64,000 nt of DNA from contig QPMI01000437.1 in assembly GCA_004431415.1 (NCBI GenBank), positions 310,001 through 374,000 of the forward strand, given 5' to 3'. The translations under genes and the position numbers were made by a program. Shown here in pieces: positions 14,001 to 60,590 of the stretch (its first letter is position 1; every line of letters begins with the position of its first letter). Under the pieces are notes generated by a model, which worked only from the letters and a program-made list of their open reading frames with translations, had not been told where the DNA came from and did not search any database. The DNA is from Cyanophora paradoxa CCMP329 (lineage: Eukaryota > Plantae > Glaucophyta).

Positions 14001-14890
14001 AGTGGGACGCGTTCGACGAGACGACCGTCTTCGACGACTACTGCGAGATGGCCATCCAGTTCGGATACGTCACCCTCTTCGGTCCGCGTACCCCTGTACC
14101 CCCCCCCGCTCCCTACCCTTCTCTTCTGACGCGGCGCGCGCGCTCGGCAGCGGCGGCGTTCCCGCTGGGGGCCGCACTTGCATTTATCAACAATGTGGTG
14201 GAGATCCGCACGGACGCGACGAAGCTGCTGACGACGACGCAGCGCCCCAACTACGCCCACGCCGCCTCCATCGGCAGCTGGTACCGCGTCCTCGAGGGCA
14301 TGGGCTACCTCGCCGTGATCACGAACCTGGCCCTCGTCGTCTTCACGAGCCACTCCCTCCAGGCCTGGTTCTCGGCCTCGCCCTTCTGGGTGACCGTCGT
14401 CGCCGCGCTGGTCGTCGAGCACGCCGTCTTCGCCACCAAGTGGCTCCTCGGCGAACTGATCCCAGATGTCCCCAAGCCCGTCCGCGTGGCCGTCGCGGAG
14501 CGCGAGTTCGCGGCCTCGGTCCGTGACAAGCTCGACGAGCTCGCCCGCCGGCAAAAGAAGGGCCTCGGGCCCGTCACGACGCCCCCGCCCAACCTCCTCA
14601 CCGAGGACGGCTCCGAGGACCGCGACCTCCAGTACGACTCGGACCAGGACTACGCCGGCGGCCGCACCTCCGCCGCCTCCACCTACGCCCCCGACGCCGC
14701 CGCCGCCGAGAGCGCCTACGGCTACAGCAACGGCTCGCCCTACGCCACCAACGCCGGCGGCCGGCCCTCCTTCTCCGCCCCCCAGGGCGGCGTCTACGAC
14801 AGCTACCAGCCGTCGGCCACCAACCAGCCCCCGGTCTACGGCAGCTACGCCCCGACCGCGGGCGGCCCCGGCGGCGCCGGCCGCTTCTAG
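11090..14890 (+). CDS. Host anoctamin / TMEM16-family Ca2+-activated chloride channel or scramblase (about 15 exons)
   Basis: Spliced exons give the family motifs [52 protein letters not shown]…KVFLFQFVNSY, FDDYCEMAIQFGYVTLF, AFPL…NNVVEIRTDATK…RP…IGSW and LAVITN. Stop at 14888-14890. Confidence 0.92.
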
Positions 14891-29200: not shown

Positions 29201-32025
29201 ACAGCTGGAGCTGAAAATGCGATCAGAGACAGCATTGAAGTTTCGATTAAGCTTAAGAATTGTTTCGGTAGCGCTTACCGTTCGTTGATTGCCAAATGCC
29301 CATCCGGACAGGGGGTACATTCGCTCGAGCCCGGCTGCTCAACGTTGAAATTGTCACGTGCACGTGGATTCGAAGCGAAACGGGTACCCAAATTAAAGAC
29401 CCGCACCTTGCTGACGAATCCTTCCGCACAGGTAACACACGTGCCGTTCCTCTCGCGCGTCCCCGCCCTGCAGATCGCGCAGCCGACGCGGTCCTTCGTT
29501 GACTCCGTTCCGCTTGGGCTGACGCTTCGCGTGAGCGCGAGAAACAGCCCTATATATAGCTAGGGGCGCCGCAAGCTCTGAAATTCAAAGATTTCAAAGA
29601 CGCGCACCATATGTCGCACTCTGCTCTTCCCGGCGCACTGGCAAAGCTGCCGAACAGGCACTGCGCAAGTGTGCGGATTTACTTTTGCAAGACGCCAACG
29701 CGATGAAACTCGAGAATCGAATCTCAGTTGTTTAAAGCGTCAATGGCGAGTGCTCACAAGTTGACATGTCGACATGTCATCGGAGCGAAAGGTGCCGGCG
29801 GCTGCGAATCGGATGTCAGCTTAAGCTTTCCAGCTCGGCGCGCGGGGGTCGGGACGGACGGCAAGCAGAGCAGCTTTGGCGGTCGGACGCGGCGACAAAT
29901 CCAGCGTGGCTGCAATGAACAACATGTAAGCGGTCATCTATAAGCAAACATGCGAACGCGGGCCGGGGGCACCAATCAAGGCACAGTGGGGTGCCGGCCT
30001 CGGGCGCGTACGTGTTGCCCACGCAGTCCCTGCACCGCCTCTCGTACTCGCCCATTCCTTTGGGACAGGCCCGGCACGAGGTGCGCTCCGGGTTTGGCGC
30101 GTGCCCAGGGTCGCACGCCGTGTAGTTCCGCGAGGCGGGGAGCGCCGCCGCTCCATCGGGCACCGGGGCGCACTCCGCCATCGATTCGTGTCGGTAGAAA
30201 CCGCCCAGACATGCTGCGAATCGATGTGTCCGGTGAGAAGAAATGTCCAAAATGCGAGATCGGCCGCGGAAATTCAAAGCGCGCGCACGGACGCAGGACT
30301 GGCCGTCGACCGCGGAGGTGTAGCCTTCCGGGCACTTCTGGCACTCCCAGCTCCCCGGCAAGCTCGCAACCGAGTTCAGGGGGCAGACTAGACACGCGTC
30401 TCCGGACTGGTACATCCCTGCGTCGCCGGCGCCGCTTTAAATTCTACTTTCGAACGAGTTCGCAACCGAAACTATTACCGCGACGGACCTGAGGGGCATG
30501 GCACGCAGAAGCTCCTGTCCGCGTTCGGGACAAATCCCGGGTCGCATTCCGTGAAGGTTGCGCTCCCCTCGCTGGCCGACGCGCGCGGCGGGACCGCCGT
30601 GCAGTGCGTCATAGATCCGTTGCGGAATGTGCCACTCGGGCACCTGCCGGCGATTGCGATTCAAGACATCATAACGATGCGAAACGCTTTATTCATGTCG
30701 CACCGCACGCAAGAAGCGCTGTCGAGAGCGGATACGGTCCCGTCCGCGCATGCAGAGCAGCCCGCGCTGGCCGACGCCGATGCGTGCGTGTTGAGCGGAC
30801 AGGCGACGCAGCGGTCTTCGAGCTGCATCAAACGAAAAGTATGCGCATGCGCATGCGCATGCAATGTTGAGAATTCGAAGGGTAGACAAAACAGATTATA
30901 GCTATAAATTCGTACCTGATACGAGCCCGTGGAGCAAGGCTGGCACTCGGACCGCAGCGCGTTCGGAATGTATCCCGGCAAGCACGGCGACCAGGTGGCG
31001 GCGGCGCCGGGCGAGACCGATCGGGGCGGAGCCAGCTGGCACGTGGCATTCTCGGCTGAGCGATACGAGCCTGTCGCGAGCGAGAGTAGTCATAAGCCAC
31101 CGGCGCCGATGAATTCGAAGCTTTACTTAAGTGTTCAACGATGCGCGGACCGACGCCACAAGGCAAACAGGTCTGCAGGTCGGACGAAGCGACGAATCCG
31201 AGGCCGCACGGGGTGCAGGCCGAGGAGGCCTCCTTAGGCGCCACGTGGTTGAGAGGACAGATCTCGCAGCTGTTGTTCCGCTTGTAGGAACCCTGGGCGA
31301 GTGTTGCGGTCACAAACAATGTTCTGTAGTTCAGCCTAGCTATAGCCGCCGCTGGCCATGGGCGCTTTGCACACCTTGCGGCAAGCGACGCATGCCCACC
31401 TCGGAAGATCAGGCACGAACCCCGCCGTGCAATTTGAGTAGGTGGCCGAACCCGGCTGGGCGACGCTGCGCGCAAAGCGCTCTCAGAACTGTGCGAATCC
31501 AATCCGATGATCGGAGCTTTGGGCGATCTTCGTATTCTTACCTGCCATCCGGGACAGAGATGCAGGTGGGATCTGAAGCGCTCCTGTACGTTCCACCCTG
31601 CTCCCCCCCGTCAGTGTACGAAGCAGAAACTCTAAGCAAACGGTGACGACTGAGACTCACTGGGCAGGGCAAGCAGGATTGTCTGGGAAGGGCGATCGAG
31701 AGTCAGACGATTACAATGCAAATTGATTCAAAGGGTCGCTGTATCCGCGACATCTTGATATTGCAGCACTAAATTTCAATAGCATTGATACAGCAAATTG
31801 CGAACCGATCGGCTGCCGAGACGTGCCCATCGGGGCAGCGTGTGCAAGATGTCTGCCCGGGCATCGCAGCAACGCTGTTGAGCGGGCACAGCAGGCAGTC
31901 CATGTTCGCCTGCAGCTGGTAGGCGCCCTGTGCATGTACAGGTGCGCCCCTCCGAATTAAGTTTGGGCATGACGCCAGCGAGGCGCGCGCTTGCACGTGC
32001 ACGCACCTTAGGGCACTGGTTGCAA
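26245..32025 (-). CDS. 3' part of a large host Cys-rich (GCC2_GCC3 / ephrin-receptor-like repeat) membrane protein gene interrupted by the virus
   Basis: Many exons with CxxCPxG/N repeats (CLVCPLNSVASLPGSWECQKCPEGYTSAVDGQSC; CLLCPLNSVAAMPGQTSCTRCPDG), followed by TM helices YALAALVVGVGALLVLVGAAVFFY and VVGSVFALLGLALAAVAVGYVV. The 3' end is uncertain and may extend to ~23000. Confidence 0.8.
32020..32025. repeat. Left target-site duplication TTGCAA
   Basis: Identical hexamer at 60585-60590. Keeping one copy restores the host reading frame. Confidence 0.9.
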
Positions 32026-32308
32026 ACACATAGTAAAATGCGGAGTTTTAACCCTCGGCTTATCTTAATTGATTTTGTTGATATATCTCGTATATTCTAT
32101 TTCAATCAATCGATAATCTGTGTATATCTTATCGAATATTCAATTATTTCGATTATTTTGTATTCTTTTCGATATTTTATCGTAAATTTCTCTTATTTTC
32201 CGATTAGTCTTACTGAGTCAATCGATAATCTGTATATATTTCCGAATAATATAACTGAATCTCAATTAGATCTTGCCTCTGGTTAAAACTCCGCATTTTA
32301 CTATGTGT
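32026..32308. other. Terminal fold-back hairpin (28-bp perfect stem, 227-nt T-rich partly paired loop)
   Basis: 32026-32053 ACACATAGTAAAATGCGGAGTTTTAACC is the exact reverse complement of 32281-32308. Confidence 0.9.
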
Positions 32309-33072
32309 GATTGGTCTAAAAGGTAATTGATTTAATCGATATTATATTCATGTACTTTCTCGATTAAATTTAATTAAATTTAATTCATTTAATCGGAAAT
32401 ATATCGCTAAACTCGATTAAGATCCATAAATGATTCATTTGTTTATATTAATAAATCGATCTCTTATTGAATTCAATCGTAATTATACATGAAACTTATA
32501 TGATTTTATCATTGTTTTGTTGAGTCTAAGGGGGGACCCTTAGAAAATTGGGTGTCACAGGTGTCACAGGTGTCACAGGTCAATCCCAAGGAAAGTCCTA
32601 GTGAGAAATTGATTTTTAAAATCCACGGGATAGACCTGTGACACCTGTGACACATACCATATTCAGTAAGGACCTCATATATTGTGAAAATCTCAGTGTT
32701 AGTTGGTGTTAAATCTTTCAGGCAGCATTTATTTGTCAGGCATTAAATCTATCGATTTTCATAAAGTATTTTATTTTGGCTAAGTCATTGTTTGGATTAA
32801 CAATGAAATTTCAATTTTATAAAAGTTTTCTAAAAAGGTGCCTGACAATGCCTGACATACTATATAAGTGCCTGACAACTATATTATAGTGCCTGACAAA
32901 CCATATATGGTAATACTATATGATATCTTCTACTTTCTCAGTGTTAGTTGGTGTAGTTGACTCAAAAAATGCATTTATACTCTGATTCATTGTTATTTCC
33001 TGTGAAATTTGAGTCAACTCAACCCACTTAGTCAACCCTTGCATTGAATTCGTAACAAAATCCATATACTAT
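32026..33072 (+). repeat. Left terminal inverted repeat (1,047 bp; imperfect extension to ~33157)
   Basis: Reverse complement of 59538-60584. I noticed only two mismatches (near 32867-32869). Begins 5'-ACACATAGTAAAATGCGGAG. Confidence 0.95.
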
Positions 33073-33430
33073 TACTACTTTTACGATTAATATGAGTCAA
33101 CCTTGAGTCCACTTTAATATAAATATTATATAATAGGGGGAATCAAGGGGAGATGCTTATAAACATATGAATTATTGAGCCTATGATACTTACATCGTCA
33201 GGCAGGCCTCGTTAAGAGGATTCCGAATCTGTTTTTGGTTTTGTCACATGATGAGTTGGTGAAGAGATACATGCATTTTAGTGTTTTGTATGTGGTTTAA
33301 TGATATGATGTCATAATGCATGGGTTTTCGTCAACAGTTAAATGAACAGTTAAGTGGACACCGTTTCACGATAAACGAGTAGACACTGCCTACTCCCAAC
33401 AGGTGTCCACTTAACTGTTCACTTAATTGT
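32525..33430. promoter_or_regulatory. Cluster of iteron-like inverted/direct repeat modules (putative origin or protein-binding region)
   Basis: Hairpin TCTAAGGG-GGGA-CCCTTAGA; GGTGTCACA x3 / TGTGACAC x2; TCAGGCA x2 / TGCCTGACA x4; AGTTGACTCAAA / TTTGAGTCAACT; 20-bp IR TGAACAGTTAAGTGGACACC. The repeats are seen directly; the function is inferred. Confidence 0.55.
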
Positions 33431-33910
33431 TCGCAATTTGCTTCATTGTCTTTCAATAGCTTTCCCGCATATCTTGTTTTCAATTGTTGTTGCAGTACAC
33501 TATTACAATAGTTGTCTCGTTAACTGTTCACTTATCTGTTCGCTGCGGAAAAAAGACGATGACGGACGTGTTATGTTACGAAATGATGTCATAATGACGA
33601 TGCATATGTATATGATATATATGACACACCATCGAACTCGGGAGATCATGACGATCACGGCGATATATATATGTTATGTGTTTATGATACATCATTATTA
33701 CATCATTATGATGCATCATTCCGAAATCTCGAAAAATCGATAATCGGCATCTTCAAACGCTTGTATCTCATCACCAGATTATCAAATCGCAACGTTCTGC
33801 ATATCGCTGTGAAGCGCTTGAAAAGATCTACAAGACAATGTGTATATCATATGCATATATGTATATCAGTCATACATATATTTGGAAAAAACGAGTTTTC
33901 GGCTAGCAAA

Positions 33911-35295
33911 CTAGCTAGTTTTGGTCCTCTCTCTTAGTGTTCTTTGAGGTTTAGGGGCTGTATATGACTCCTTAGTAGTCTGAAAGTCATTATACCATCT
34001 CTGGCTATTCACTTCTGAAAGTTTCTGTGTTCCTGCTATAGTGAGCTTTTTGAGTTCCCTGTTAACTTTCCCAGCCTTCTCCTTCCTAGCCTCTATCAAA
34101 GGCTTAACTGGGACTTCATTAGCAGCTTCTATGCCTTCTCTCCTTATAGCAGCATCAACCCTAGCTTCCTCTTTAGCTTGCTCTAAGGCATCCACTGTAG
34201 GGGCTTCCAGATACTCAACTGCATTCACAGGCAACAGCTCATGGAATGCAAACCTGTTATCTATGATCTCTCCAGTGGGACTCTTTAGCTTAAACTTAAA
34301 GCCTTCTCTACTATCAACAGTGTAAACCATCCTAGACCAATTGTTACCCTGTTTAGCAAAGGGGTTCTTCTCAACTTTCACTCTAACAAACATGCCAGGC
34401 TGCATGGTATCAAGGTAAGCTATTGATTTCTTGAATCTTTCATCTTCTAATCCCACTATATACCTATAATGATCCTCTGTAGTTTCACCTGGCTTCATCT
34501 TAGTAGCTGAGTGGACTGTATTATTGTAATTATACTCAATATCACCTAACACATCAAAGAATCTAGCTGTGTTATTAGCTATGCAGTAGTTTGTGATCAG
34601 TCTCTTAATCTGCTTGTTAAAGGCTTCAATTCGACCTTGGCTTCTGTGGTCAGCAGTTCCACTCACTTGGTGTTCTATGAATTTACTAGATAAATACTCC
34701 TGGAATATTCGATTTTGGAACTCACTTCCAGCATCTGATTGAACCTTTACTATTGGTCTTGCCACTCTCATCTCAAGCTGTTTAAATGCAGCCAATGTAG
34801 TGAGAGCTGATTTATCTCTTATAGGTATAATATACCCAGTTCTCAGTGTTGATTCCATTGCAGTCATAAATGTATCATAGCCATTGTTTTGTTTCTTATA
34901 AGCTGGGAAAAAGAGCAAATCAATCACATAGGTATCAAGGGGTTGCCTAATTGGGACCATGGGATCTCTCTTCCTAGATATAGCAGGTGCATTGATCTGA
35001 ACAACTTCTTGTTTTTATAGAACTCTTGCAACTGCTTATAGGATTCATCTGGTAACTCAGCCCTCATAGCTTGAAGCCCTTTATAACCAGTTCTCACATC
35101 ATAGAATCTCTTGGCAATCTTGTTGGTTTCTTTCACTGCAATAGCAACTGGGATCTCTACTGGGACAAGCTCTTTCATTTCAGACTTTTTGACAATTCGA
35201 GATTCCCCCTTTTCCTCCTTTGGAACTGTGATAGGCAGTAGGTTACCTTGTAGTTGCTCAGTGGTTCTCCTAACTATTCTTCCAGTTGCTGGCAT
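33911..35295 (-). CDS. Retroviral-type (rve, DDE) integrase; one -1 frameshift at ~35014
   Basis: Catalytic triad YVIDL / QSDAGSEF / GRIEAFNK, YNNTVHSATKMKP, and a Polinton-type C-terminal PGMFVRV…F.K…WS segment. ORF 34924-35295 joins 33911-34960 if one A is added to TATAAAAAC. Confidence 0.92.
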
Positions 35296-35298
35296 CTC

Positions 35299-38200
35299 TT
35301 AATTAAAAGGAACAGAATTAATACCATCTGGTAAGATGTATCTCTTTGCATCAAAGCAGTTTAGGGCAACCCTTCTACTCACAGTGTCTATTATTGTGTG
35401 ATCTGCCCTTCTTTTCTGCTTTGCAGTCACAGTCTTGCTGATACCTGCAAATAAACACTGTTTAAAATCATTAAATTGGAGTTCCTCAGTTGAAGTCCCA
35501 GAGAGCTTACTCCTCTCAATCTCAGCTGTTCTGAAACTGTAAACTTTGGCTCTCAGACCCACATACTCCAGTATAGCAGAACCTGGCATCTCATTTTTGT
35601 ATTTACCTGGGGTCATTCTTGAATCACCTCCAAGGTCCAAGGCATAAGATATATTCTCTATATCTTTTTGTAAGGTCTTAGATTCGATATATAGACAGAA
35701 GGAATCAGTATCATGGAATAGTAACTTTGCTTTTGTCCATTGGGACCTTACAGTATCATAGAAGAACTGGTAATTATGCAGTTTGGCTGCATCCAAAACA
35801 TAAGCCCCAATTGCAACAGGCTTATCTAGTTTCACATGCTTTGTGTAAAACTCAAAGGCAACTGCTTTTTCGTTTATGGGCTTGTTGATTTCACCAATGG
35901 AGAGGCTGCATATTTCATAAATAGTTTCTCACTGTTTGCAATCTTAACCACAGATCTACCTCTACATGATTCAATGCATTTCCCATAGATTGAATTATTC
36001 ATGAGCTTATAGAAATCAGCCTCAAATTTATTCACTGCTTTCCTTCTCATATCAGTGTTCAGCTCAATGTAGGGTTTCATTACAGGAGCCACAGTAAATG
36101 ATAGGACCCTGTGAACCTTCTTTAGTTTCATCCCTTTGTCCAACAGATACTGTAGAAGAGGCTCAGAAATCACATAGTTGGTCACAGAACCAAAGGTTGC
36201 AGTTAGCTTAGGGGTCTTATCAAGCTCTTCTCCTGAGAGATCTAATAGGCTCTTTTGATATTGTGATAATTCGGCATATTCTACTATTTTCTTGTTAATA
36301 ATTAGGGGGAAATCACTGTGGTCTAGATATAGCCTAATTGGGTAATCCAGATCAACTTCCAGGAAACTGGATCTGTTATCTTGTGGGTTGAATTCGGTCT
36401 CCCATCTAAAATCACCAACTGGAATTGGCTGACTCAAACAGTAGCCATACAAGTTGTTAGCATCAAACAGCATTATATGGGAGTTCTCACCATCAGCCTC
36501 AGCATACCTACAAGGCATTGTTGCAAAGCCACCCCTGATTCCCCTCTCAACAAATTCGTATTGCTCTACATCACTTATAAGCTCTATTTTTGCCTTGGTG
36601 GTCCTAAGCATAGCATCCCAAGATAACCCAGGTGCAGATACATAATGAACTGGGTCCAATCCATATACTGAGTGTGAAAGCCTTCTGAAAGCCTGGAATT
36701 TGCTCATTAACTCATCTACATCAGCAGCCCCAAAGTCCATAAAATTACTTGCATCAATGAACTTGTAAAGACCCCATTGCAATGAAAGGTATTGATCAAA
36801 GTTTTTCGAAAGGATTTCGATTCGCTTTTTATCACCCATGCCTGCTATTTTTCTGAAAATGAATGTCCCACAGTCATCCATTTGGTCAACAACCACTGCT
36901 ACTTTTGTTTGCTTTGAGATTCTCCTATGAAGATTGCAGTTTCTGCATGCAGGAGCAATGTAATTACCTGTGTGGTGATCATGATCCCTGCATTTGAAGT
37001 TTTCCTTGGTGAACCTCTCACTGCAAAGGTAACAGTGTTTGGTAGCTCTGTAAATTGCTTTCTGCTCATCTGTGAGTTCATTCATGGGAATATTGGTAAA
37101 CAGGAAGTCAATTAGCTCTCTTGCTTTGGATTCCAAGCATTCAAACAGACCTCCCATTGGATCCTGACCCTCAAATCGAAAATCTTGAACATCTTCCCCA
37201 GTGACTATTCTTATGTTGACTGCTGAGACTTCCCTCTTGGATTTCGATGCATCTATGGGGATGCTTCTATGTTCAATCTTGCAGTAAACCACAACAGGAA
37301 GCCAAACAGTTTTCCTTAGGTTTTTCAGTCCAAACTCTATGGTGGTCTCAGGTTTTGGTGTGATTCCCTTTGAGAGTCTCCAATCAATGCATCTATTTGA
37401 ATCCACATGAGCAGTTAGTTTAGCCTCAGACCTGAATCGAGATAAGCATGTATCACAGTAGTGTAACTTTTGATCCTTGGTTTTATCAAGGGCAACTCTG
37501 AGAAGTCTTGAAAGGGACATGATTGTAATATAGTGACCATTCCCTTCATCATCATGAATGAGCATGAGATTAATCTTTTGCTTTCTGCCTGGGTTGCTGG
37601 ATTGATGTAGGGGATATATAACATCTCGATCCATTCCAAATATGTTTATGCTGATGCCTGCATTTTGAGATTCGAATTTATCAATGATTTCAGCATCACA
37701 GGGAACAGGGAATGGGATGTTATCGAAATTGAGAGCCAGAGGATTGTATGTAGTTGGTGAGTATTTCCATTTGCGATATTGTGTTAGCTCACTTCTCTTG
37801 TGGAATTCACATCTTTCCTATGGATCCATGCCAAAACTGCATTTTCGAAGCAAGAATCATCAATATTTCGAATATTCACTGTGGCTCTCTTGGCTGCAAT
37901 TGAATCAGGTGTTTTAACATAGCAACCACCAGTTGGGGCATAACTCATAATAGCAACTCTGAGCATTTCGATTCTCTCCAATCGATAGCTATCAACAACA
38001 TTCATCTGCTCCTGACACATTTGGGCTGCTTTATTCAGCTCAGTTCGAATATTTCTCGATTTGGTTAATACAAAATAATCGCTGTAAATGTATTTCGATA
38101 TCCAAACCTGTGGATTGCTGACTTTTACGAACTTGCAGATAAACGATAAGCGAACTTTGATTGCCCTGAATTGATCTAGACTGTCTCTTAAACGTTTTGG

Positions 38201-38542
38201 TAGAGAGGTTGCAATTCTATCTAAATATTCAATCACATCAACAACAACTTCCCTTCTGGCTCTGTAAGTGAGCCAGCGATATAATTCATTCATTGCTGTA
38301 CCATCTTCTGCCTCTGGTTCTATTTGCCTCAGGCGATCGAGTTCATCAAGAGTTTCAACTTTATCATAGAGGTTATTGGCTTTTCTGGTTAATTTCGCTA
38401 AAGTGGGTCTGCCCCTTGAAATAAATCCGATTTCCCGGTCATATTCAGCCTCTGTAATTTCATGGGCTGCATACAGTGTTCCCAGTAATCCCATGAGTTC
38501 CCATTTCTTCTCTCTAATGAGTCTGTTGCTAATTCGGGGCAT
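35299..38542 (-). CDS. polB: Protein-primed family B DNA polymerase (Polinton-type), split by two -1 frameshifts (~37800, ~35882)
   Basis: Motif A LFDANNLYG, motif B KLMNNSIYGK, motif C HDTDS, GLRAKVY, YGLDPVHYVSAPGLSWDAML, an EndoVII-like Zn insert CYLC…DHDHHTG…ACRNCN, and N-terminal NIRNIDDSCF. The three ORFs are collinear. Confidence 0.92.
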
Positions 38543-38576
38543 AGTTCCTAACTTGTTCCTACTCTCAACAAATATT

Positions 38577-38894
38577 TTATTCTGAGATGTTCTGAACGCG
38601 ATTTTCTAGTTTCTTTCGCAATTTGGCTTTGTAATGCATTGGATTATGTGATCCATTTTTTGTCCATACATTTGGGTTTTTGTGATACTGTTTAAGGGCG
38701 TTAATTAAGTTTTTCTCTGTTTGTAATCGCAAACAATCAATATCTTTGGAGGAAAGCTGTGACATTTGATACCCATCACATTTGCTTTGGCATTTGATGA
38801 TTTTGTCTATAAGAGCTGGTATATCCTTCAAATCATCTTTATCGAAATGTTTGTTCTCAATCATTGAACTCATTCTGGTAGTCCAGCTTGTCAT
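38577..38894 (-). CDS. Viral hypothetical protein (105 aa)
   Basis: ATG-started ORF packed in tandem upstream of pPolB. No recognisable motif. Confidence 0.55.
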   Translation of the reverse strand: MTSWTTRMSSMIENKHFDKDDLKDIPALIDKIIKCQSKCDGYQMSQLSSKDIDCLRLQTEKNLINALKQYHKNPNVWTKNGSHNPMHYKAKLRKKLENRVQNISE

Positions 38895-38947
38895 TGTTGG
38901 TACTACTACTTATTATTATAAGAATATTATAATGTATTTGTTTTAAA

Positions 38948-39092
38948 TCGTCAGGCAGACTTCGATTGTCAGGCAGCTGATTCAGCCAACATTAAGAAAC
39001 TCTGTCACTTTTTCAAGTCAGTGTTTGAGAAAACTAATGAAACCATAAACTTATAAAAGTTAAATAGAAAGGTGCCTGACAGTGCCTGACAG
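38948..39092 (+). repeat. Degenerate internal copy of the TIR TGCCTGACA module (left-TIR orientation)
   Basis: GTCAGGCAG x2 … ~100 bp AT-rich … AAAGGTGCCTGACAGTGCCTGACA, matching 32717-32857. Confidence 0.8.
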
Positions 39093-39096
39093 CTTT

Positions 39097-41490
39097 TTAA
39101 CAATCATCATCATCCTCATCAATAAACTCTGTTGTATTTTCCGAAATCAGTTTTACACACTTGTAACCTCTATCATATACTTTTGAAGTTGCCTTTCTCA
39201 CTGCATATTTGTCATATTTGGCTCCCAACATCTCCATTACTCTCTTAACCCTGCTTGCAGACATATTGAGTTTCAAAGCTTTTAACTCCTCATCTACAGT
39301 TTTGCTTGACAGAGAATCAGAAGGATTTCCTGTAAATTCAAATCTGCTTTTTAGTATTTGAATTTCATCACCTGCATCCTCTCTGAAAGCAGCAGTATCA
39401 TTTGCCACCTTGCCACATATCTGGACTTTGTGGGATTTGTATGCTTGGAATACTGACCATTGGAAAGCATGAATGATTTCAGGGCGTTTAAGCAGATCAC
39501 TTTTAATATCTTCAGAAGCCAATCTATAGCATGGGAGCTTCATTTCATCCATTGTTTTCTGATCCACAAACTTGTGGGGATGCTGAAAGAAAACAAGAGT
39601 CTCAAGTGTATCAGATGGAGAAACAGGGGGCATATCATTCATGATCATCCAGAGCCTACTTTGGAGTCTTATATTTTGCTCATTTCCATATAGGATTCGA
39701 ATGCATTGAATATCACCACCAGATTCTTTCTTTTTAATCATATTGCCATTTATCTTGATACTTGGATTCGAAACATCAAACTTCATCTCTTGGGTAAATG
39801 TTAAACGGCGAAATTCACATGGTTTCATCCATTTTAGCTTTTTAGCCTCATCAGAATCTGAATGTTTGTCCATCAGGAAAGATTCTCCTCCAATAGTGTT
39901 TACATAACCACTCCCCCAAGTGTTCTCATTAAGATTGACATAAACTCCTTTTCCACAATTGCGCTCACCTGATGATAGTCCCCATTGTTTATCCTCTACT
40001 TTGCCTGCCATTGCTCTTGCTGTAAATTCGAGAGCAGTATTAATTGCATCTGCTCCAAACACAGGTTCAAGTATGTTTTCGTAGAGGATTTTTATATGCT
40101 CTTCTGACGGCTTGACTACATATCCTTGATCATCTACAAGTAAATCTCTTTCAATTCGAGTAGTGGAATATACGTTTTGACACTCTGCCCAAGGAGTAAG
40201 CTTTTTGGTTTCGAAATCATACACACCATTTTTATAACACAATTTTCCAAGAGATGAAGACCATAGGACATTATTCACAAACTCACTATCATTTGGCAGA
40301 AGAGCTTTTGTGGCTTTGATAACTTTTTGAGCGCCTGTTATATTTGCGGTATACTCTGTTAGACCTGTTAGACCCTCATGATATATCTTTGCTTGGAGGC
40401 ATTTTTTTAGGAACACATTTTCCACTTGATTGGCTTCCTCAGTCCAAAGGTTCTCATCTGTTTTGACAAATATACGACCATTGGATTGCTTGACATCATT
40501 TTTGATATCTTCAGCAAACAGAGTAGCAGCCTCATAGTCTGTAGAGCAAATTCGAAAATCGTTTGCTTTCAGAGAAGCTTCATCTGGAAGCTCGAAACCC
40601 TGATCCATAGGCTTAACAACTAAGCCTAATTTGTATCCTGTGGACTGCTGGATATAGTTCTCTGCATCTTTGAGAATATCAGTAAGTTTTTCCAGTGATA
40701 GATTAGGTGACTTTTCAATCATGCAGCCATCAAATACAAGAACACCAACAGTGAGTTTGATGGAGGTTAGATACTCACACAGAGCCATAAGAGCAATATT
40801 CTCAATCTGACAAAGAACCATGTTAACAGTAGAACCTAACACATTGTAGCCCTTCTTTCGCTTGCAAATAGCAAGGAAGTTGGTATTTTCTTTTAATTCA
40901 GCAATAGAAGCATGAATACCACCAATTTCTTGTTTAACCTTTTTAAAAGCCATTTCTTTGTGTAAATCGGGACACTCAATGCCTCCTCCTCCGTTAATCA
41001 CAGATAAGAAGGCGCACTTAATTTCTTCACGAGTAAGATCACACTTTTTGCTTAAATCACTAACGATTTTATCTCGATTGGCAACAAACTCAGCAAGGAA
41101 ATCACAGTTTATGTCATTTTTTTGGCAATACTGGACGAGTATCGATGGATGAGCATTTTTCATATCAATATCATAATACAAATCCCTTGCTAAGGTGTGT
41201 CTAAATTCCCGAGGCATACTCTGCATGCTTGCTTTTTTGTTTTTGATGTGTGAGAGAGTAGTGAAATATCTTCCAGTATGGTGTTTGCATTGATAGTATT
41301 TAACTTGAATGGTCCCATTTGAATGCAAGTCCTTCATATATTTCTTGAGGAGAGTCAAAGTAGCAGTAGAATCCACATCTGGTCTATAACTCAAACCCTC
41401 GAAATTATCGATTAAATACTTAAGAGTAGGGCGAGATACTTTTTCAATAAGAGTGATATCGAGATTGTTGGGTTTCTTTGAGCTAAACAT
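39097..41490 (-). CDS. TVpol-type (PolA-like) primase-polymerase fused to an SF3 (D5-like) helicase, 797 aa
   Basis: N-terminal GRYF…SMQSMPREFR, YYDIDMKNAHP, KCAFLSVINGG, LVFDGCMI. C-terminal NGVYDF, Walker A GERNCGKG, Walker B LTFTQE, sensor-1 WMIMND. Confidence 0.85.
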   Translation of the reverse strand: MFSSKKPNNLDITLIEKVSRPTLKYLIDNFEGLSYRPDVDSTATLTLLKKYMKDLHSNGTIQVKYYQCKHHTGRYFTTLSHIKNKKASMQSMPREFRHTLARDLYYDIDMKNAHPSILVQYCQKNDINCDFLAEFVANRDKIVSDLSKKCDLTREEIKCAFLSVINGGGGIECPDLHKEMAFKKVKQEIGGIHASIAELKENTNFLAICKRKKGYNVLGSTVNMVLCQIENIALMALCEYLTSIKLTVGVLVFDGCMIEKSPNLSLEKLTDILKDAENYIQQSTGYKLGLVVKPMDQGFELPDEASLKANDFRICSTDYEAATLFAEDIKNDVKQSNGRIFVKTDENLWTEEANQVENVFLKKCLQAKIYHEGLTGLTEYTANITGAQKVIKATKALLPNDSEFVNNVLWSSSLGKLCYKNGVYDFETKKLTPWAECQNVYSTTRIERDLLVDDQGYVVKPSEEHIKILYENILEPVFGADAINTALEFTARAMAGKVEDKQWGLSSGERNCGKGVYVNLNENTWGSGYVNTIGGESFLMDKHSDSDEAKKLKWMKPCEFRRLTFTQEMKFDVSNPSIKINGNMIKKKESGGDIQCIRILYGNEQNIRLQSRLWMIMNDMPPVSPSDTLETLVFFQHPHKFVDQKTMDEMKLPCYRLASEDIKSDLLKRPEIIHAFQWSVFQAYKSHKVQICGKVANDTAAFREDAGDEIQILKSRFEFTGNPSDSLSSKTVDEELKALKLNMSASRVKRVMEMLGAKYDKYAVRKATSKVYDRGYKCVKLISENTTEFIDEDDDDC

Positions 41491-41895: not shown

Positions 41896-42019
41896 TTGGG
41901 TATCTCTTAACTATAACCGAGAAAAATGTTTTGTCAGATTTCAATATGCTTGATTTCCTTAAGTAGTTTATGATTCGTCATTTTTTGGTAACAGAGATAA
42001 TTCCTATACTGTTACCATA

Positions 42020-42212
42020 AATGGTTTGTCAGGCACTTTCAAATAGTTGTCAGGCACTAATATAGTATGTCAGGCATTGTCAGGCACCTTTTTAGAAAAC
42101 TTTTCTATAATGAAAATTTCATTGTTGATTCAAACAATGACATTGAGAATTGGAAACGTTTGTGAAAATCAATGTGTTTCCTGCCTGACAAACTTCTTGC
42201 TGCCTGACAACC
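42020..42212 (-). repeat. Internal copy of the TIR TGTCAGGCA module (right-TIR orientation)
   Basis: TGTCAGGCA x4 + CCTTTTTAGAAAACTTTT…CAAACAATGAC closely matches 59707-59826, followed by TGCCTGACA x2. Confidence 0.88.
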
Positions 42213-43946: not shown

Positions 43947-44729
43947 TTATAAACCGCGTTTATATCGCATCAATTTATTGCTATGGACTTGGCTTTTCAC
44001 TTCTTTGGGGGCTTCCTCTTTTTCTGGTGGTTTCAGTTCATCCTCTTTCTTTTTTGGCTTCCTGTGGAAGCGAGGAAATGGGAAATCTTTCACAAGCTCA
44101 GCTTTATCTACATAGTATTTAACTGAGTAGTTTGCAGAGGACCAAATGATATATTGATAGGAGTGAACATACTCTTCAAACATCTTGTAGAAATCCTCTT
44201 TATTTCGCATTATATTGTATTCTTCCTCTATGGCTTCAAGTTCTTTGCGATTAGCAGCACTGAGAAAAATAGCATAGTCAGAATTAACTCGAATAGTCGA
44301 CGAGACTTTCCTTAGCTTTTGTGTGATGCAGATAATGGATATTTTCGAATGGCGACCTCTGGAATACAGAGATCCGATTATTTTATCCCTTGTGAGATCG
44401 ACTATCTCATTATCGATTAAATCATCTAAAACAACACACATGTGGTTGACAGGTACACCCTTTTCGATTTTCTCCTGCCTTTCATCCAAAAGCTTTGAAA
44501 TGTAACCGGCATCCCATTTACCAAGTTCTACTGTTGCAACCTCTCTCCAGAAATGATTGAAGCTGGTTCCACTCACAACTAATACAACATCAATCTTTTT
44601 GGCATCATGCAGTTGCTTCAACCAATACTTTACAGCTTCTGATTTACCAGTGGCAGACTTGCCAATTGCTAATACACGAAATGGTGGTTCTATCATTTCA
44701 CCAGCCACAAATTCATCCAAATCATTCAT
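43947..44729 (-). CDS. A32-like (FtsK/HerA) genome-packaging ATPase
   Basis: Walker A GKSATGKS, Walker B VVLDDL, arginine-finger segment SRGRHSKISIICITQ…IRVNSDY. Confidence 0.93.
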   Translation of the reverse strand: MNDLDEFVAGEMIEPPFRVLAIGKSATGKSEAVKYWLKQLHDAKKIDVVLVVSGTSFNHFWREVATVELGKWDAGYISKLLDERQEKIEKGVPVNHMCVVLDDLIDNEIVDLTRDKIIGSLYSRGRHSKISIICITQKLRKVSSTIRVNSDYAIFLSAANRKELEAIEEEYNIMRNKEDFYKMFEEYVHSYQYIIWSSANYSVKYYVDKAELVKDFPFPRFHRKPKKKEDELKPPEKEEAPKEVKSQVHSNKLMRYKRGL

Positions 44730-45792: not shown

Positions 45793-47160
45793 TCAAAGAT
45801 TTATACGTCTTAAACCATCGCGATCCAAAATTATGAACGAATGCATGAGAGCGCGAACATTAACATCGATTACCTTATCTGAAGGCATGTAGAGGGTGAG
45901 GAATGAAGAGGAGGAATTTGTTAAATCAACATAACCAGACTGGGCAATATTTCGAATCGCCTTTTCTCCATCAAGGCAGAAAGGCAATCCTGAAAGGACA
46001 TAGCGATCAGCAACCTTATCCATGTTAGAGCATTTGAAGGCATCAGCAATTAGCTCAGCACCTTTGAGTAGGGAAATTGGCTCAGTGGCAAAAAGTCGCT
46101 GTCCATTTATTTCAGTTGTGAATGTTATCTCTTTGGAGTTGGCATAGGTCTTAAGAACACTGTGGGAGCCTGTGGATTTATCAACAGTTGCATTATCACG
46201 AACTGAAACAAGCAGAGCATAAACCAGTCCAGAGATTTGAGAGAGGTTAATTCGATTGGGTTGGGCATTGCCCTTGGCAGGGAAAGCACTAGCATCAACA
46301 AACCCAATGTCTAGAGCAGGAATAGCCATGCCAGTAGTCTTTACTTTTTCAATAACAGTAGCGAAAAGCTCATCAGAAACATTAATAGCATGCATGTAAA
46401 GGCGAGGAGAGGTAATTGTAATACCAGGGGTTGTTGCACCAAGACTGAAAGTGGTGATGTTTTGACCAACATGGGCAAGGGTTCCATCTGTGAAGTTTCC
46501 AAGACCATCATCGGCAGTTGCATCAACTGTTCCAACAGCAGTTGTGAGTTCACGACCACCATAGGAAGTTTCAACATAACCCTTCTCAGCATCCTTAAAC
46601 CAAACAGTAACAACCATTTCACCAGATAAAGCACCAAGGGGAAGGTAGTGATTTAGCCAAGGCACAGGAATTTCAACGAAAAATGAGCCACCAAGGCGGT
46701 TGGTTCCATGAGCAGGAATGCCATGAACCATGCCCATTGATCGCTTCTTTTTAGCTAGTTGATCCTCCGAATAATAGACCAGGGGGAAATGAGCAAGGAA
46801 ATCAGATGGAATATGGTAGGTGTAAGATCCATAGGTAATTTCAAGTCGCTGAACTAAAGCACCAACTGGGCGAGTGTATCCATTGCGAACTAGGTCAGTA
46901 TCACCAGCAAAAGTGATGGCTGGAAGGTCGAAAGCAAGTTCGAGTTTTCCACAGAAATTGTAGCGAGGTAGCTTGAAGGAAATGCGATTTCCAACATTAT
47001 TCTCAAAAGTATTGCTGGGATTCACAACAACTAGAACTGGCTTAGACTTGGATTCGAGACCAAGCATAAGGGAGTTATCCAGGAAAAAGGCTTTCGCCTC
47101 CTCTGGGGTTGTTAGGGCTTCTTTCAGCGAAAGTCTTTGAAGAGTGGAAGTGATATCCAT
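45793..47160 (-). CDS. Major capsid protein, double jelly-roll (about 455 aa; ATG at 47160)
   Basis: Size and position next to the ATPase and pentons. ISFKLPR…LELAFDLPAI, LVQRLEITYG and VEIPVPW…YLPLGAL…VVTVWF resemble NCLDV/PLV MCP N-terminal motifs. Confidence 0.8.
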   Translation of the reverse strand: MDITSTLQRLSLKEALTTPEEAKAFFLDNSLMLGLESKSKPVLVVVNPSNTFENNVGNRISFKLPRYNFCGKLELAFDLPAITFAGDTDLVRNGYTRPVGALVQRLEITYGSYTYHIPSDFLAHFPLVYYSEDQLAKKKRSMGMVHGIPAHGTNRLGGSFFVEIPVPWLNHYLPLGALSGEMVVTVWFKDAEKGYVETSYGGRELTTAVGTVDATADDGLGNFTDGTLAHVGQNITTFSLGATTPGITITSPRLYMHAINVSDELFATVIEKVKTTGMAIPALDIGFVDASAFPAKGNAQPNRINLSQISGLVYALLVSVRDNATVDKSTGSHSVLKTYANSKEITFTTEINGQRLFATEPISLLKGAELIADAFKCSNMDKVADRYVLSGLPFCLDGEKAIRNIAQSGYVDLTNSSSSFLTLYMPSDKVIDVNVRALMHSFIILDRDGLRRINL

Positions 47161-48253: not shown

Positions 48254-49186
48254 ATGAACCGGCTCGTTAATATTGATAGCAGGGATAGAAGCCAAGGACA
48301 AAATGAAAACTCTTACAGGGTCACCCTCACAACTCCAGTAGAGAGACCAAGGGAATGTAGGGTTCTCTATGCAGAGATTCCAAACAGTATCTATAACAGT
48401 GTGGGAACTGATCATCTAACAGTTCAGTTTAATTACCAAGATGGTTCATATAACCAAGTGATCACACAACAAGTGTATCCCCTTCCCAGTGGCTACATCA
48501 ATCAGGGTCATTTTGGGGTCACACACCCTTATAATTATGGGCTGAACTATTCAAGCTTCCAAACTATTGCAGGCAAAACAGTAGCTTTTGAGTTCAAGAT
48601 ATTCTACAACCCAACAACCTATAAAGTGGAGTTTTACAGTAACCATGAGTTTCGTTTTATTGCAAGCAACCAGAGAATAGGAAAGCTTTTGGGTGTAAGT
48701 TCTACTGAATACACCACTGGGTATTATAGCACTCCTCCTGTTGGTGGATCTCCCTATCGACCTGAGAACCTTTTAAAGTATGATGGCAAACCTATTACAC
48801 CTGATCACCCAGCATGGGGAATCACCTTCTCAGGACCCAGACTCTCCTCTAAGCCCTTGCAATATTATTTTGACAGCAGGAAGATGTCTGATATGAATGC
48901 TGAGCAGTATCTGTACATGCATATTAAAGAGCTGTCCCCCTTTGCCAGCAGACACAATATAATTCCAAAATCGCAACCACAAAATCAGGGAGCTATCCTT
49001 AGATTGCAATTGAGTAAGGATATAGGGGGCTATGTTTACCATAGTGGTGAGCATGCAGAATTTATTCAAATCAATGACAGAAACCTGGTGATAAGGGAAC
49101 TCACAGTTGAATTTAAAGATTACTTTGGTGAACTGATTGATATGAATGGAATCGATAATTCTTTTCAGTTGGAGTTTATCGAATAA
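48254..49186 (+). CDS. Minor capsid (penton) protein 2
   Basis: VNIDSRDR…YRVTL…LYAEIPNSIYN; YLYMHIKEL…LTVEFKDYFGELIDMNGIDNSFQLEF. Confidence 0.8.
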   Translation: MNRLVNIDSRDRSQGQNENSYRVTLTTPVERPRECRVLYAEIPNSIYNSVGTDHLTVQFNYQDGSYNQVITQQVYPLPSGYINQGHFGVTHPYNYGLNYSSFQTIAGKTVAFEFKIFYNPTTYKVEFYSNHEFRFIASNQRIGKLLGVSSTEYTTGYYSTPPVGGSPYRPENLLKYDGKPITPDHPAWGITFSGPRLSSKPLQYYFDSRKMSDMNAEQYLYMHIKELSPFASRHNIIPKSQPQNQGAILRLQLSKDIGGYVYHSGEHAEFIQINDRNLVIRELTVEFKDYFGELIDMNGIDNSFQLEFIE

Positions 49187-50731
49187 AGGCACCTGTAAAG
49201 TCAACTCTCATTGTGGGAGCATTCACATACACAAGGGGATAAATGCGAATATATCTTATTCTCAGAGAATAACCTATGTAAAAAGCATCCTTGATGCTGA
49301 GAGGGAACCCACTCAATAGAGCCACATCACCAGAGTTGTGAGCATTGTTAATGTTCTCACAGACATATATTTTGTTTTGCCCATCTGATCGAATAAAAGA
49401 CCAGTTGATCCCATCAGTGGATGTTGCCACATTGAAAGTCTTAATAAAAGCATTGGTGTCCCCTGATCCATAGGCAATCACAGAGGAGAGTTCAAAAGTA
49501 TATGGAAAAGCAACTTGAAGGTATTCAGTGGGGGTTTCCCATATCTGCTCAGGAGCATAGGCTCCAGCTTCCCAGCCAAATGCTGAAGGTCTAGCCATGA
49601 AAGGCTCTTTACCAGTCACAGAGGATGAGGCAGTGAAGGCATCATCTGCAAGCTGATACCAATTAGCATCTAAAGGAGGTGACTCTGTGAGAGTGGATGA
49701 GATGTAAGCCTTTGTAGGGTTCTTTAGTTCATAGTTTGCTACTAGTAGGCTGCAAAGCTTATTAATCATATCATTGTTTGCTGCAATGTATGTTTCAGTG
49801 AATGCTAGCATATCTGGGATTTTAGAAGTGTCATCCAGAGAGCTTACTATATGATTTGGAAGAGGGACTGATAGCCTATAGTATCTCCCATAATCCTGAT
49901 CATAGTTGTATGGTAACAACTCCTCCATCTTATCAAGGGCAGAAAGCTCACTTGCAGCCATGAGCATGTTAATCAATGGGCTTCCATCTGTTGAGGCAAT
50001 CCATGAGAGAATTCCCCAGCTGTTTACAGTCTCATAAGCATAACCCACATAATCAGACTCTAAATGTGGGTCCACCTCTCCACAAGAGATACTTATTACT
50101 ATAATGTCATCATCATCACTGTAAATCTTCTTTGCATGGCTGTAACCACACACACTGGGATTATTGTTTCCCGAAATGGCACCATCAATGAGACAGACAT
50201 ATACCCCCCGATTGAAATCAACAATGCTTACAGGAGAGAAATATGTAGGAGCAGCAGAGGTAGCCCTAGCAGCAATCTTACAAGGCAGAAAGTTGTAATT
50301 GTTATCATTTGTGATAAATATTGGTTTCATATTCTGAGTATCAAAGGATGTGATCACAATGTCCTTTAGGGAATCCTGTATTAGTGATTCCCCAGTAACT
50401 GAATTGATTGCAGTCTCCAAGGGTCCCACATCATACTTTGTATTAAATAGGGCATTTTCGATTATATTTCGAGGATTTGCGAAAATCAAGGGCAGTTGGG
50501 CTAGGTAAATGTTGTGTAAATCGTTTGCTGTGAGTTTAGGTTCACCTGGTTTATCAGGATGCCTTATATTCAAACCTATTGCAATGATCCCACCAGTGGA
50601 AGTTCCACTCACAAGATCCACAAGATCGATTATTCTCCTGCCAGTTCGATTTTCGATTTCTTTTAGCAGCCTGGTTATGATAATGCCCCTTGCACCCCGC
50701 CAGAAAGACTTAAAACGACCTTGAGAGGCAT
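49176..50731 (-). CDS. Patatin-like phospholipase fused to an F5/8 type C (discoidin) domain; -1 frameshift at ~50696
   Basis: MPLKVVLSLSGGGARG (restored by one extra G), GTSTG, ARATSAAPTYF, IDGA. C-terminal FTASS…W…EYLQV…F.VATSTDGINW…RYIRIYP…MRVDFTG. Confidence 0.88.
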
Positions 50732-50774
50732 CTTTTACTTATCAGGAATTTTATAAATCCATATAGTAAAAGCC

Positions 50775-56500: not shown

Positions 56501-56503
56501 TAA

Positions 56504-56809
56504 ATGGCGACCTATCCTCTTGGTGGAACCACCTATTCTACTGAGCCTGTTGCGCTTTCTTTTGATACAATCACCCTTGTAAACGCATTACAAACAGTTG
56601 AAAAAACGATTCAGCAAACTAACAAGCTCTCACCAGTTGTCAATGAGTATAAAAACCTCTTGGTTAATGTCCTTGCTCAAGCTGCATATGGTGACCCTGT
56701 TGCTAAATACACTGAGTGTGATAACAACATTAAAGCAATGACATCCAACCTGCAAGTTCTTTCAACTGTTTACCAATCCCTTGGATCGAATTTAATCACT
56801 TTGGCTTGA
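56504..56809 (+). CDS. Viral hypothetical protein (101 aa)
   Basis: ATG 3 nt after the fibre stop codon. Predicted helical. Confidence 0.65.
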   Translation: MATYPLGGTTYSTEPVALSFDTITLVNALQTVEKTIQQTNKLSPVVNEYKNLLVNVLAQAAYGDPVAKYTECDNNIKAMTSNLQVLSTVYQSLGSNLITLA

Positions 56810-56848
56810 TTGCAGTTTATTTTTCTTTCCTTCTTAGTAAAAGAAGCA

Positions 56849-57724: not shown

Positions 57725-57725
57725 A

Positions 57726-59537: not shown

Positions 59538-60584
59538 ATAGTATATGGATTTTGTTACGAATTCAATGCAAGGGTTGACTAAGTGGGTTGAGTTGACTCA
59601 AATTTCACAGGAAATAACAATGAATCAGAGTATAAATGCATTTTTTGAGTCAACTACACCAACTAACACTGAGAAAGTAGAAGATATCATATAGTATTAC
59701 CATATATGGTTTGTCAGGCACTATAATATAGTTGTCAGGCAGTAATATAGTATGTCAGGCATTGTCAGGCACCTTTTTAGAAAACTTTTATAAAATTGAA
59801 ATTTCATTGTTAATCCAAACAATGACTTAGCCAAAATAAAATACTTTATGAAAATCGATAGATTTAATGCCTGACAAATAAATGCTGCCTGAAAGATTTA
59901 ACACCAACTAACACTGAGATTTTCACAATATATGAGGTCCTTACTGAATATGGTATGTGTCACAGGTGTCACAGGTCTATCCCGTGGATTTTAAAAATCA
60001 ATTTCTCACTAGGACTTTCCTTGGGATTGACCTGTGACACCTGTGACACCTGTGACACCCAATTTTCTAAGGGTCCCCCCTTAGACTCAACAAAACAATG
60101 ATAAAATCATATAAGTTTCATGTATAATTACGATTGAATTCAATAAGAGATCGATTTATTAATATAAACAAATGAATCATTTATGGATCTTAATCGAGTT
60201 TAGCGATATATTTCCGATTAAATGAATTAAATTTAATTAAATTTAATCGAGAAAGTACATGAATATAATATCGATTAAATCAATTACCTTTTAGACCAAT
60301 CACACATAGTAAAATGCGGAGTTTTAACCAGAGGCAAGATCTAATTGAGATTCAGTTATATTATTCGGAAATATATACAGATTATCGATTGACTCAGTAA
60401 GACTAATCGGAAAATAAGAGAAATTTACGATAAAATATCGAAAAGAATACAAAATAATCGAAATAATTGAATATTCGATAAGATATACACAGATTATCGA
60501 TTGATTGAAATAGAATATACGAGATATATCAACAAAATCAATTAAGATAAGCCGAGGGTTAAAACTCCGCATTTTACTATGTGT
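59538..60584 (-). repeat. Right terminal inverted repeat (1,047 bp; imperfect extension to ~59477)
   Basis: Reverse complement of 32026-33072. Includes the same hairpin (stems 60302-60329 and 60557-60584). Confidence 0.95.
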
Positions 60585-60590
60585 TTGCAA
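60585..60590. repeat. Right target-site duplication TTGCAA
   Basis: Matches 32020-32025. Confidence 0.9.

Follow-up and report, generated by a model that had tools for sequence, protein, structure and literature searches.

A nested inverted repeat at the ends of a Polinton-like element of Cyanophora paradoxa keeps almost only one orientation among integrated copies

The ends of a Polinton-like element in the genome of Cyanophora paradoxa are formed by a 283-bp unit in which the terminal 28 bp recur as an inverted copy behind a T-rich spacer, and across the integrated copies of the element's family this spacer sits almost only one way round. How integrated Polinton-like viruses (PLVs) and virophages start their replication and leave the chromosome is unsolved. 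Perfect short palindromes cannot reveal whether a terminal loop is inverted during copying, whereas an asymmetric 227-nt loop present in dozens of copies can. The one-way reading narrows the mechanisms available to the family; it also places the predicted nick sites to the base, points to a candidate origin and makes a high-copy system available in culture.

Results

The 283-bp unit is the end of a Polinton-like element

We analysed a window of 64,000 nucleotides (64 kb) from C. paradoxa CCMP329. The window contains a Polinton-like element of 28,559 bp (about 28.6 kb; 32026-60584) between two copies of TTGCAA, and the host flanks diverge outside this 6-bp duplication. The element is AT-rich, with a G+C content of about 0.31-0.44 inside and mostly 0.5-0.7 outside. 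The following features define its ends.

32020..32025, no strand: left target-site duplication TTGCAA (itself palindromic); the same 6-mer is at 60585-60590
32026..33072, plus strand: left terminal inverted repeat (TIR), 1,047 bp, with 2 mismatches to the right TIR
32026..32053, plus strand: outer 28-bp arm, which is the left terminus and starts with an AC dinucleotide repeat; host-junction contigs fan out here in four runs
32054..32280, plus strand: T-rich spacer of 227 nt, a degenerate palindrome with CG-centred motifs mirrored about 32167
32281..32308, minus strand: inner inverted copy of the 28-bp arm, followed across the family by the inner TIR without host DNA
59538..60584, minus strand: right TIR with the 283-bp unit at 60302-60584, oriented relative to the end as on the left
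60585..60590, no strand: right target-site duplication, matching the 6-mer at 32020..32025

Since the target duplication lies directly outside it, the 283-bp unit is the true end of the element. The original prediction, that the terminal 28 bp recur as a perfect inverted copy after 227 nt at both ends, is exact: the right-end arms (60302-60329 and 60557-60584) are perfectly complementary and lie 227 nt apart, as on the left. Allowing up to six substitutions, we found no further match to the 28-bp arm elsewhere in the 64-kb window. The two ends are two copies of one TIR and do not provide independent evidence for the nested repeat; being just 2 mismatches apart, these copies are young. Similarity between the TIRs extends for about 80 bp beyond an 11-bp indel past the 1,047 bp. 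Together with an rve integrase, a protein-primed DNA polymerase (pPolB) and an A32 ATPase, the long TIRs and the 6-bp duplication link the element to the Polinton/Maverick type and support its description as Polinton-like.

Several other features lie near the termini or elsewhere in the window. A perfect 20-bp inverted repeat with a 39-nt gap (33343-33421) sits just outside the left TIR, and in contigs from the sequencing runs a joint near 33397-33500 leads back by about 100 bp. Part of the TIR (32784-32923) with the motif TGCCTGACA recurs between genes at 42002-42141 and 39036-39091 (90% and 80% identity) and is a candidate viral promoter. Outside the element, a host gene lies in pieces at 12659-14890; judging by its motifs, we take it to resemble an anoctamin.

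The spacer keeps one orientation across the family

Half or more of the words of 30500-40400 are contained in 20 of 22 public sequencing runs, four of which (X1, X4, X10 and X17) we examined. These are assembled short-read contigs from one organism, possibly the source of the window; they probably represent one strain lineage rather than independent ones, all their data come from integrated copies, and copies other than that of the window are read through them. From the lengths and breaks of the records we took them to be paths of 31-letter words; words of this length span the 28-nt arm, so that the two orientations are distinguishable. The records considered are the 32 of 220 listed, and contigs drop rare variants. 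Depth over the host flank was 69.2 (X1), 114.6 (X4), 16.7 (X10) and 36.9 (X17), and over the terminal unit it was in the thousands. Division of these depths gives about 55 (X1), 79 (X4), 193 (X10) and 89 (X17) ends, a rough guide to copy number. The element belongs to a family of roughly 50-190 ends per run, and the unit is family-wide.

In the orientation of the window, the inner TIR (GA...) comes directly after the 3' end of the spacer and the arm; had the end been flipped, or were the unit a free MITE or a solo scar, host DNA would stand there instead. If flipped and unflipped ends occurred 1:1, about three eighths of the depth after the inner arm should go to a base other than G. In X1, an unbroken record runs to 32310 at depth 3787, the sole alternative over 32276-32279 is a 6.9-deep variant, and flipped host junctions account for 0 of a depth of 3794 among the records listed. 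The X10 path is likewise unbroken to 32309 at 3220 and continues at 3500 with one 6-deep side word; here flipped host junctions make up 0 of 3220, no other listed record covers 32279, and the word G + arm + GA has a depth of 250 against a total of 178 for the three listed host exits, which leaves a gap of 72 (2%) as the upper bound for flipped inner junctions in that run. Depth in X17 is 3297, 3300, 3300 and 3329 successively across the inner arm. At most 16.4 of 3297 is added there from 32279, less than half of a single copy (36.9) and similar to the neighbouring side words (5 and 9), that is, at the level of errors. In X4, 9010.6 starts at 32279 against 9000 before it, and 11,100 ends at 32310, where the next record is unlisted; by arithmetic only, this fits a path that is mostly unflipped, with a few percent flipped at most.

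The same run holds one 60-nt record at a depth of 49.7 that has the sequence of a flipped inner junction: the start of the spacer, reversed, leads into the arm, with one substitution near 32284, and on into six inner-TIR bases. Its depth equals 0.55% of that around it, or 0.43 of a single copy, and the record is absent from X1, X10 and X17, which run unbroken at this position. With depth at 9000-fold, an error bubble combining words of the outer and inner ends could account for it, as could a host flank whose first six bases happen to be the same, or a rare real inversion.

Host junctions are kept in the graphs, as long host contigs occur at single-copy depth (12-81) and 47-56 records per run fit two places. 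A flip at a single locus should therefore have shown, at least where the host DNA starts with A, C or T. The junctions fan out solely from the outer-arm side, and both ends of the window copy share their orientation relative to the end. In summary, the spacer sits almost only one way round across the integrated copies of the family. The original prediction of parvovirus- or poxvirus-type termini failed in this main test: a loop occurring in both orientations had been foreseen, either as flip/flop isomers or as an invertible end cassette, and flipped junctions are nearly absent among the integrated copies of all four runs.

Nor is the unit a MITE dispersed in the host, an outcome that had been named as contrary to the original prediction, as the contigs listed continue from the inner arm into the TIR only. 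Nine bases inward of the inner arm, at 32318, about one third of the depth leaves the window sequence in X1, X17 and X4, and further depth leaves at 32319-32323. Differences among copies within the inner arm itself are not found among the listed records, at a sensitivity of about one tenth of the ends and with depths summed. The unit is common to copies whose inner TIRs differ in sequence. It is 2.4- to 4.6-fold deeper than the inner TIR, an excess that fits inner-TIR variants that do not align to the window copy.

In the established models, AAV terminal resolution and symmetric resolution of a poxvirus junction would by their geometry invert the loop in half of the ends, and so would fold-back end patching with later nicking and the opening of a circle with one palindromic junction. 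Because the family's integrated ends keep one orientation, cycles that invert the loop (AAV resolution, poxvirus junction resolution, circle-junction opening) are unlikely for this family. Opening of a one-junction circle is also disfavoured by the shared orientation of the two window ends.

The unit is predicted to fold back through its 28-bp stem

Against the 28 bp observed, perfect inverted arms in 300 shuffled TIRs reached a mean maximum of 10 bp per shuffle and at most 15. The stem continues imperfectly to 47 nt at 81%, and the pairing score of its proximal 20+20 nt was equalled by 46 of 3000 shuffles. As had been suggested as a check, we folded 32026-32308 as single-stranded DNA; the two strands reach -45.4 and -50.2 kcal/mol, far better than their shuffles (z of -9.7 and -10.5, 0 of 200 shuffles each). 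When the terminus is placed in silico at the end of a 675-nt single strand, all 28 stem pairs form with a probability of at least 0.91, so that the snap-back expected of a single-stranded 3' end is indeed predicted. The spacer by itself has just a slight folding advantage over shuffled sequence (2 and 3 of 100), and the strong fold comes from the 28-bp stem. As a duplex the unit has an energy of -328 kcal/mol, far more stable than the two hairpins (-45 and -50).

The spacer consists of 106 T, 61 A, 36 C and 24 G (26% G+C) and is as T-rich as described at the outset (106 of 227 nt). Its CG-centred motifs form four mirror pairs to within 2 nt (32089/32243, 32111/32223, 32133/32201 and 32150/32181), a number reached by 8 of 5000 shuffles. 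This symmetry is owed in part to the regular spacing of the motifs, and we do not take it as proof of pairing. Motifs of the same kind, CG-centred, mostly self-complementary and about 20-22 bp apart, run on past the inner arm to 32478. Because the array continues in this way, self-complementarity is equally high in the spacer and in the 227 nt inward of the inner arm (2 of 1000 shuffles for each). The spacer can accordingly be read as a phased array of candidate binding sites as well as a hairpin arm. Its partial self-complementarity, a further point of the original prediction, holds as a loose palindrome but is equalled by the adjoining sequence. The 16-mer that had been noticed twice is present at 32106 and 32218, but T at 32220 takes most of the contig depth in all four runs, so that the second copy is a minority form; the commonest allele at 32220 adds one pair to the fold. 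Four variants in the run contigs lie within the spacer.

An 82-codon hydrophobic frame (32038-32286) begins within the outer arm and has its stop codon in the inner one. We rejected it as a gene: it has no homolog, and a common one-base insertion at 32061 breaks it in three of the four runs. An open frame through the spacer arises in 54 of 3000 shuffles.

The element encodes two replication modules

33911..35295, minus strand: integrase of retroviral (rve) type, split over two overlapping frames; sub-threshold Pfam rve match, E 1.6e-4
35299..38542, minus strand: pPolB, in three frames in the window copy; Pfam DNA_pol_B_2 E 7.5e-14
39097..41490, minus strand: primase-helicase of 797 aa in an open frame, D5/SF3-type helicase; PHROG DNA primase E 4e-9
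43947..44729, minus strand: A32-type packaging ATPase; Pfam Pox_A32 E 6.8e-11
45793..47160, minus strand: major capsid protein candidate; 59% to a Cyanophora paradoxa protein, the sole homolog found

The two integrase pieces match a 463-aa relative, P0122, at 78% and 63%, and P0122 has a PHROG transposase match. The pPolB contains motifs A, B and C (DTDS), the N-terminal layout of Polinton enzymes and a vOTU-type Cys motif as in its homologs. Within the first 400 residues, 41 of 120 homologs carry an SG[W/F] motif, where the window copy has D-S-Y; the structure model of the N-terminal piece (pLDDT 40.6) is too poor to use. Passages of a preprint on Polinton enzymes describe terminal-protein and vOTU domains at the pPolB N-terminus (bioRxiv 10.1101/2024.03.18.585575). 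An endonuclease VII-like insert in the pPolB has a Pfam E of 1.7e-4 (21.9 bits against a cutoff of 23.6) and is common among the homologs. The integrase is interrupted by one frameshift and the pPolB by two, though the TIRs differ by two bases only; this reflects either assembly error in a high-copy repeat or decay.

The primase-helicase is 32% identical to a virophage protein with a D5_N match, and its N-terminus is, from its motifs, presumably PolA-like. Two replication modules thus adjoin at 35299-41490, a pPolB most similar to animal Polinton enzymes (about 40%) and a primase-helicase closest to that of a virophage (30-32%). The product of 45793..47160 is probably the major capsid protein; its model (pLDDT 33.5) is too poor to use, with no significant fold match and capsid proteins solely among the non-significant ones, and it has no Pfam or PDB sequence match. 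Sequence searches of the PDB returned nothing. Of the 52 ORFs we scanned 27 with Pfam, among which there was no match to an Ulp1-type maturation protease and none to a Rep/NS1-type HUH nickase, a remote form of which such a scan could miss. The Ulp1-type protease is a Polinton feature that is absent from many PLVs. The remaining genes include zinc-finger proteins, fibre-like genes and an AdoMet decarboxylase. The S-adenosylmethionine decarboxylase gene lies at 58883-59281, and 49176-58558 encodes a protein with a discoidin domain as well as a fibre-like protein of 1699 aa whose tail is an S74 chaperone.

Facing 9-mer arrays form a candidate internal origin

32551..32653, no strand: facing tandem 9-mer arrays, three copies followed by two inverted; the right-end counterpart is at 59957-60059

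Within the window scanned, such facing 9-mers are confined to positions 0.5-0.6 kb from the two ends, and their arrangement suggests a candidate internal origin for the primase-helicase. The same design occurs in 4 of 12 viral loci that encode this primase-helicase and in 0 of 116 unrelated loci, which were unmatched in composition; one of the four shares the GTGTC core. In these loci (L001 333-457, L120 12136-12235, L122 197-267, and L128 862-1003 and 12587-12730) the arrays are tandem 9-10-mers 30-110 bp apart, and L128 carries the module twice, inverted. We propose facing arrays as candidate replication origins of virophages and PLVs.

The terminal unit has no divergent relative in the contigs searched

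Searches for relatives with preserved ends, made with the capsid candidate and the integrase in viral contigs and with the integrase in metagenome contigs, gave no confirmed locus. A 20-nt terminal motif had 0 viral matches. A 16-nt motif matched 116 metagenome loci, none of which exceeded 22 of the 28 bases, had an inverted copy within 700 bp or coded for element proteins. The 12 viral loci with the primase-helicase, whose ends may not be true ends, show no such terminal unit. Altogether, no divergent relative carrying the 283-bp unit was found in the viral and metagenome contigs searched, and Rfam had 0 matches in 31900-33900.

Discussion

Since loop-inverting cycles are unlikely for this family, a mode of copying that leaves the ends unchanged is favoured. 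We see about an even chance that the free form is a linear duplex copied from end to end by protein priming, with the fold-back serving as an end-recognition or end-repair structure and no hairpin being transferred and inverted. In such a cycle, unwinding by the primase-helicase would begin at the facing 9-mer arrays, some 0.55 kb from the end, and initiation at such an internal origin would expose the last few hundred bases as a single strand. The 28-bp arms could then pair and mark the end, and the terminal-protein part of the pPolB would prime on the terminal ACAC repeat. A shortened 3' tip might be restored with the inner arm as template, as the fold-back palindrome of Streptomyces does, and under such repair the arms would stay identical while the loop kept its orientation. 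Finally, the integrase would insert the ends with a 6-bp duplication.

Short terminal repeats suit slide-back priming. Protein priming is supported here by the encoded pPolB and by a terminus that consists of a short tandem repeat. Maverick ends are likewise described as short tandem repeats, (AGT)2, (AG)3 and (AC)3A, in passages of PMC8097293, and fold-back repair, internal initiation and protein-primed end patching are shown for Streptomyces telomeres in PMC5449611. Other observations count against protein-primed copying. The paired 3'-OH on a perfect 28-bp stem is predicted to be a ready primer, and the model needs it to remain without far extension. The pPolB of the window copy is broken twice and has D-S-Y in the place of S-G-W, so that its terminal-protein function is putative; the intact enzyme is the primase-helicase, of a class tied to palindromic ends in Halocafeteria; and X4 has its one record of a flipped inner junction. 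A structural role of arm pairing, as opposed to duplex binding sites, is also putative.

It is possible, though unlikely, that the 3' end does snap back and prime synthesis by the primase-helicase enzyme or the pPolB, with orientation preserved by asymmetric resolution or by integration of one isomer. The strong predicted snap-back and the open primase-helicase frame beside a broken pPolB are in keeping with hairpin priming, as is the flipped-type record of X4, which is missing from the other three runs. No Rep/NS1-type nickase turned up among the 27 ORFs scanned, and selection by the integrase is hard to picture, since the isomers share their terminal 28 bp; to our knowledge, this is more than a retroviral-type integrase reads. 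Some parvovirus termini occur in one form only, according to passages of PMC8242256, and the terminal palindromes of Halocafeteria accompany non-pPolB replication genes according to bioRxiv 10.64898/2026.07.28.741278.

We consider it rather improbable that single-strand structure is irrelevant, the symmetry being one of inverted protein-binding sites round a phased array in the duplex, or a relic of a hairpin-ended ancestor or of a fold-back accident. Both the motif array and the self-complementarity extend beyond the inner arm, and in copies as young as these, with TIRs 2 mismatches apart, exact arms need no selection for pairing. Accidental annealing is also named as an alternative in passages of the Halocafeteria preprint (bioRxiv 10.64898/2026.07.28.741278). 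On the other side stand the perfect 28-bp stem that ends exactly at the terminus, its partly paired extension (46/3000) and the additional pair contributed by the commonest allele at 32220, but inverted duplex sites would fit these equally.

A long shot is that the unit acts as an exit device: one strand would be nicked 5' of the outer arm (32025/32026), the opposite strand 5' of the inner arm (32308/32309), at a distance of 283 nt, whereupon the hairpins would part and fill-in would free the virus. With similarly low probability, the primase-helicase would open the end from the origin 0.55 kb inside and the hairpin bases would lie exactly at the virus-host border; the cutting nuclease would perhaps be the endonuclease VII-like insert of the pPolB. 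The same sequence is present at both nick sites, the geometry predicts one orientation and a blunt rebuilt end, and the spacer is poor in G+C. The insert itself falls below the Pfam cutoff, and inserts of its kind, which recur widely in pPolB homologs, are not known to be linked to such ends. Parting of the hairpins would require opening by a helicase, given the far greater stability of the duplex, and empty sites that retain the unit (a non-G base after the inner arm) are found at single-copy depth in none of X1, X10 and X17. If true, this reading would answer how such proviruses leave the chromosome, which passages of PMC8547959 treat as an open question.

A telomere of AAV or poxvirus type with flip and flop about equal, or an invertible end cassette, is very improbable. 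The shape of the unit and the X4 record (60 nt, at 49.7 against 9000) speak for it, but X1, X10 and X17 lack the record, which may be an error bubble, and the three eighths of non-G depth expected compare with 0/3220 (X10), 0/3794 (X1) and at most 16.4/3297 (X17). Short inverted ends, AT-richness and the raised depth of the unit lend hardly any credibility to an independent MITE or a solo scar from recombination between the arms, as contigs enter the TIR and never host DNA after the inner arm, the depth excess fits inner-TIR variants, and both are refuted at the single-copy level in X1 and X10.

The closest parallels come from Halocafeteria seosinensis, in which terminal palindromes are described for endogenous virophages (subtypes 1, 2, 5 and 6) and for PLV subtype 4, in a 2026 preprint that proposes hairpin priming and draws the comparison with parvoviruses and poxviruses (bioRxiv 10.64898/2026.07.28.741278). 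As in our element, the inverted repeat lies at the tip of the TIR, adjoining the target duplication, in integrated rve-type elements. The Halocafeteria palindromes are short (52 nt in subtype 5), whereas here 28-bp arms enclose 227 nt; as the screen described there allows gaps of up to 10 nt, an end with a 227-nt loop would be missed. The palindromic elements of that preprint mostly carry non-pPolB genes, unlike the combination of pPolB and primase-helicase found here, and the words flip and orientation do not occur in its main text.

With Polintons/Mavericks and pPolB-bearing PLVs the element shares its TIRs, 6-bp duplication, rve integrase, pPolB, A32 ATPase and short terminal tandem repeat. 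Unlike Polintons/Mavericks, it has a nested inverted copy of the terminus and a second replication enzyme, no Ulp1 protease in the ORFs scanned, and a capsid protein that is a candidate only. The AAV ITR and the telomeres of poxviruses and ASFV are terminal imperfect palindromes that give a 3' primer, and poxvirus loops are AT-rich and mismatched. Our unit resembles them as an imperfect terminal palindrome with a possible, in silico predicted 3' primer, and resembles poxvirus loops in being AT-rich and mismatched; it differs in that flip/flop is not seen among integrated ends, T-shaped arms are lacking, no Rep/NS1 protein was found in the ORFs scanned, and the loop is much longer and looser. 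Poxvirus and ASFV genomes also have covalently closed ends in virions and a Holliday-junction resolvase, for which the below-cutoff endonuclease VII-like insert of the pPolB is a possible counterpart here. By analogy, it is also like the Streptomyces telomeres with Tap/Tpg, for which passages of PMC5449611 describe an internal origin, a folding terminal single strand of a few hundred nucleotides, protein priming, fold-back repair and one orientation. Host and proteins are unrelated, one long-loop stem stands in place of packed short palindromes, and the steps proposed here are drawn by analogy with that source.

In the literature searched as full text, which includes few subscription papers, we found no long-loop nested terminal repeat and no orientation test in a PLV; the words palindrome and hairpin are absent from the main texts of Bellas 2023 (PMC10120064) and of the cryptophyte PLV paper (PMC12220804). 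Palindromic ends of PLVs and virophages and the idea of hairpin priming are thus already in print, in bioRxiv 10.64898/2026.07.28.741278, whereas the 227-nt loop, its association with a pPolB and its fixed orientation are new here.
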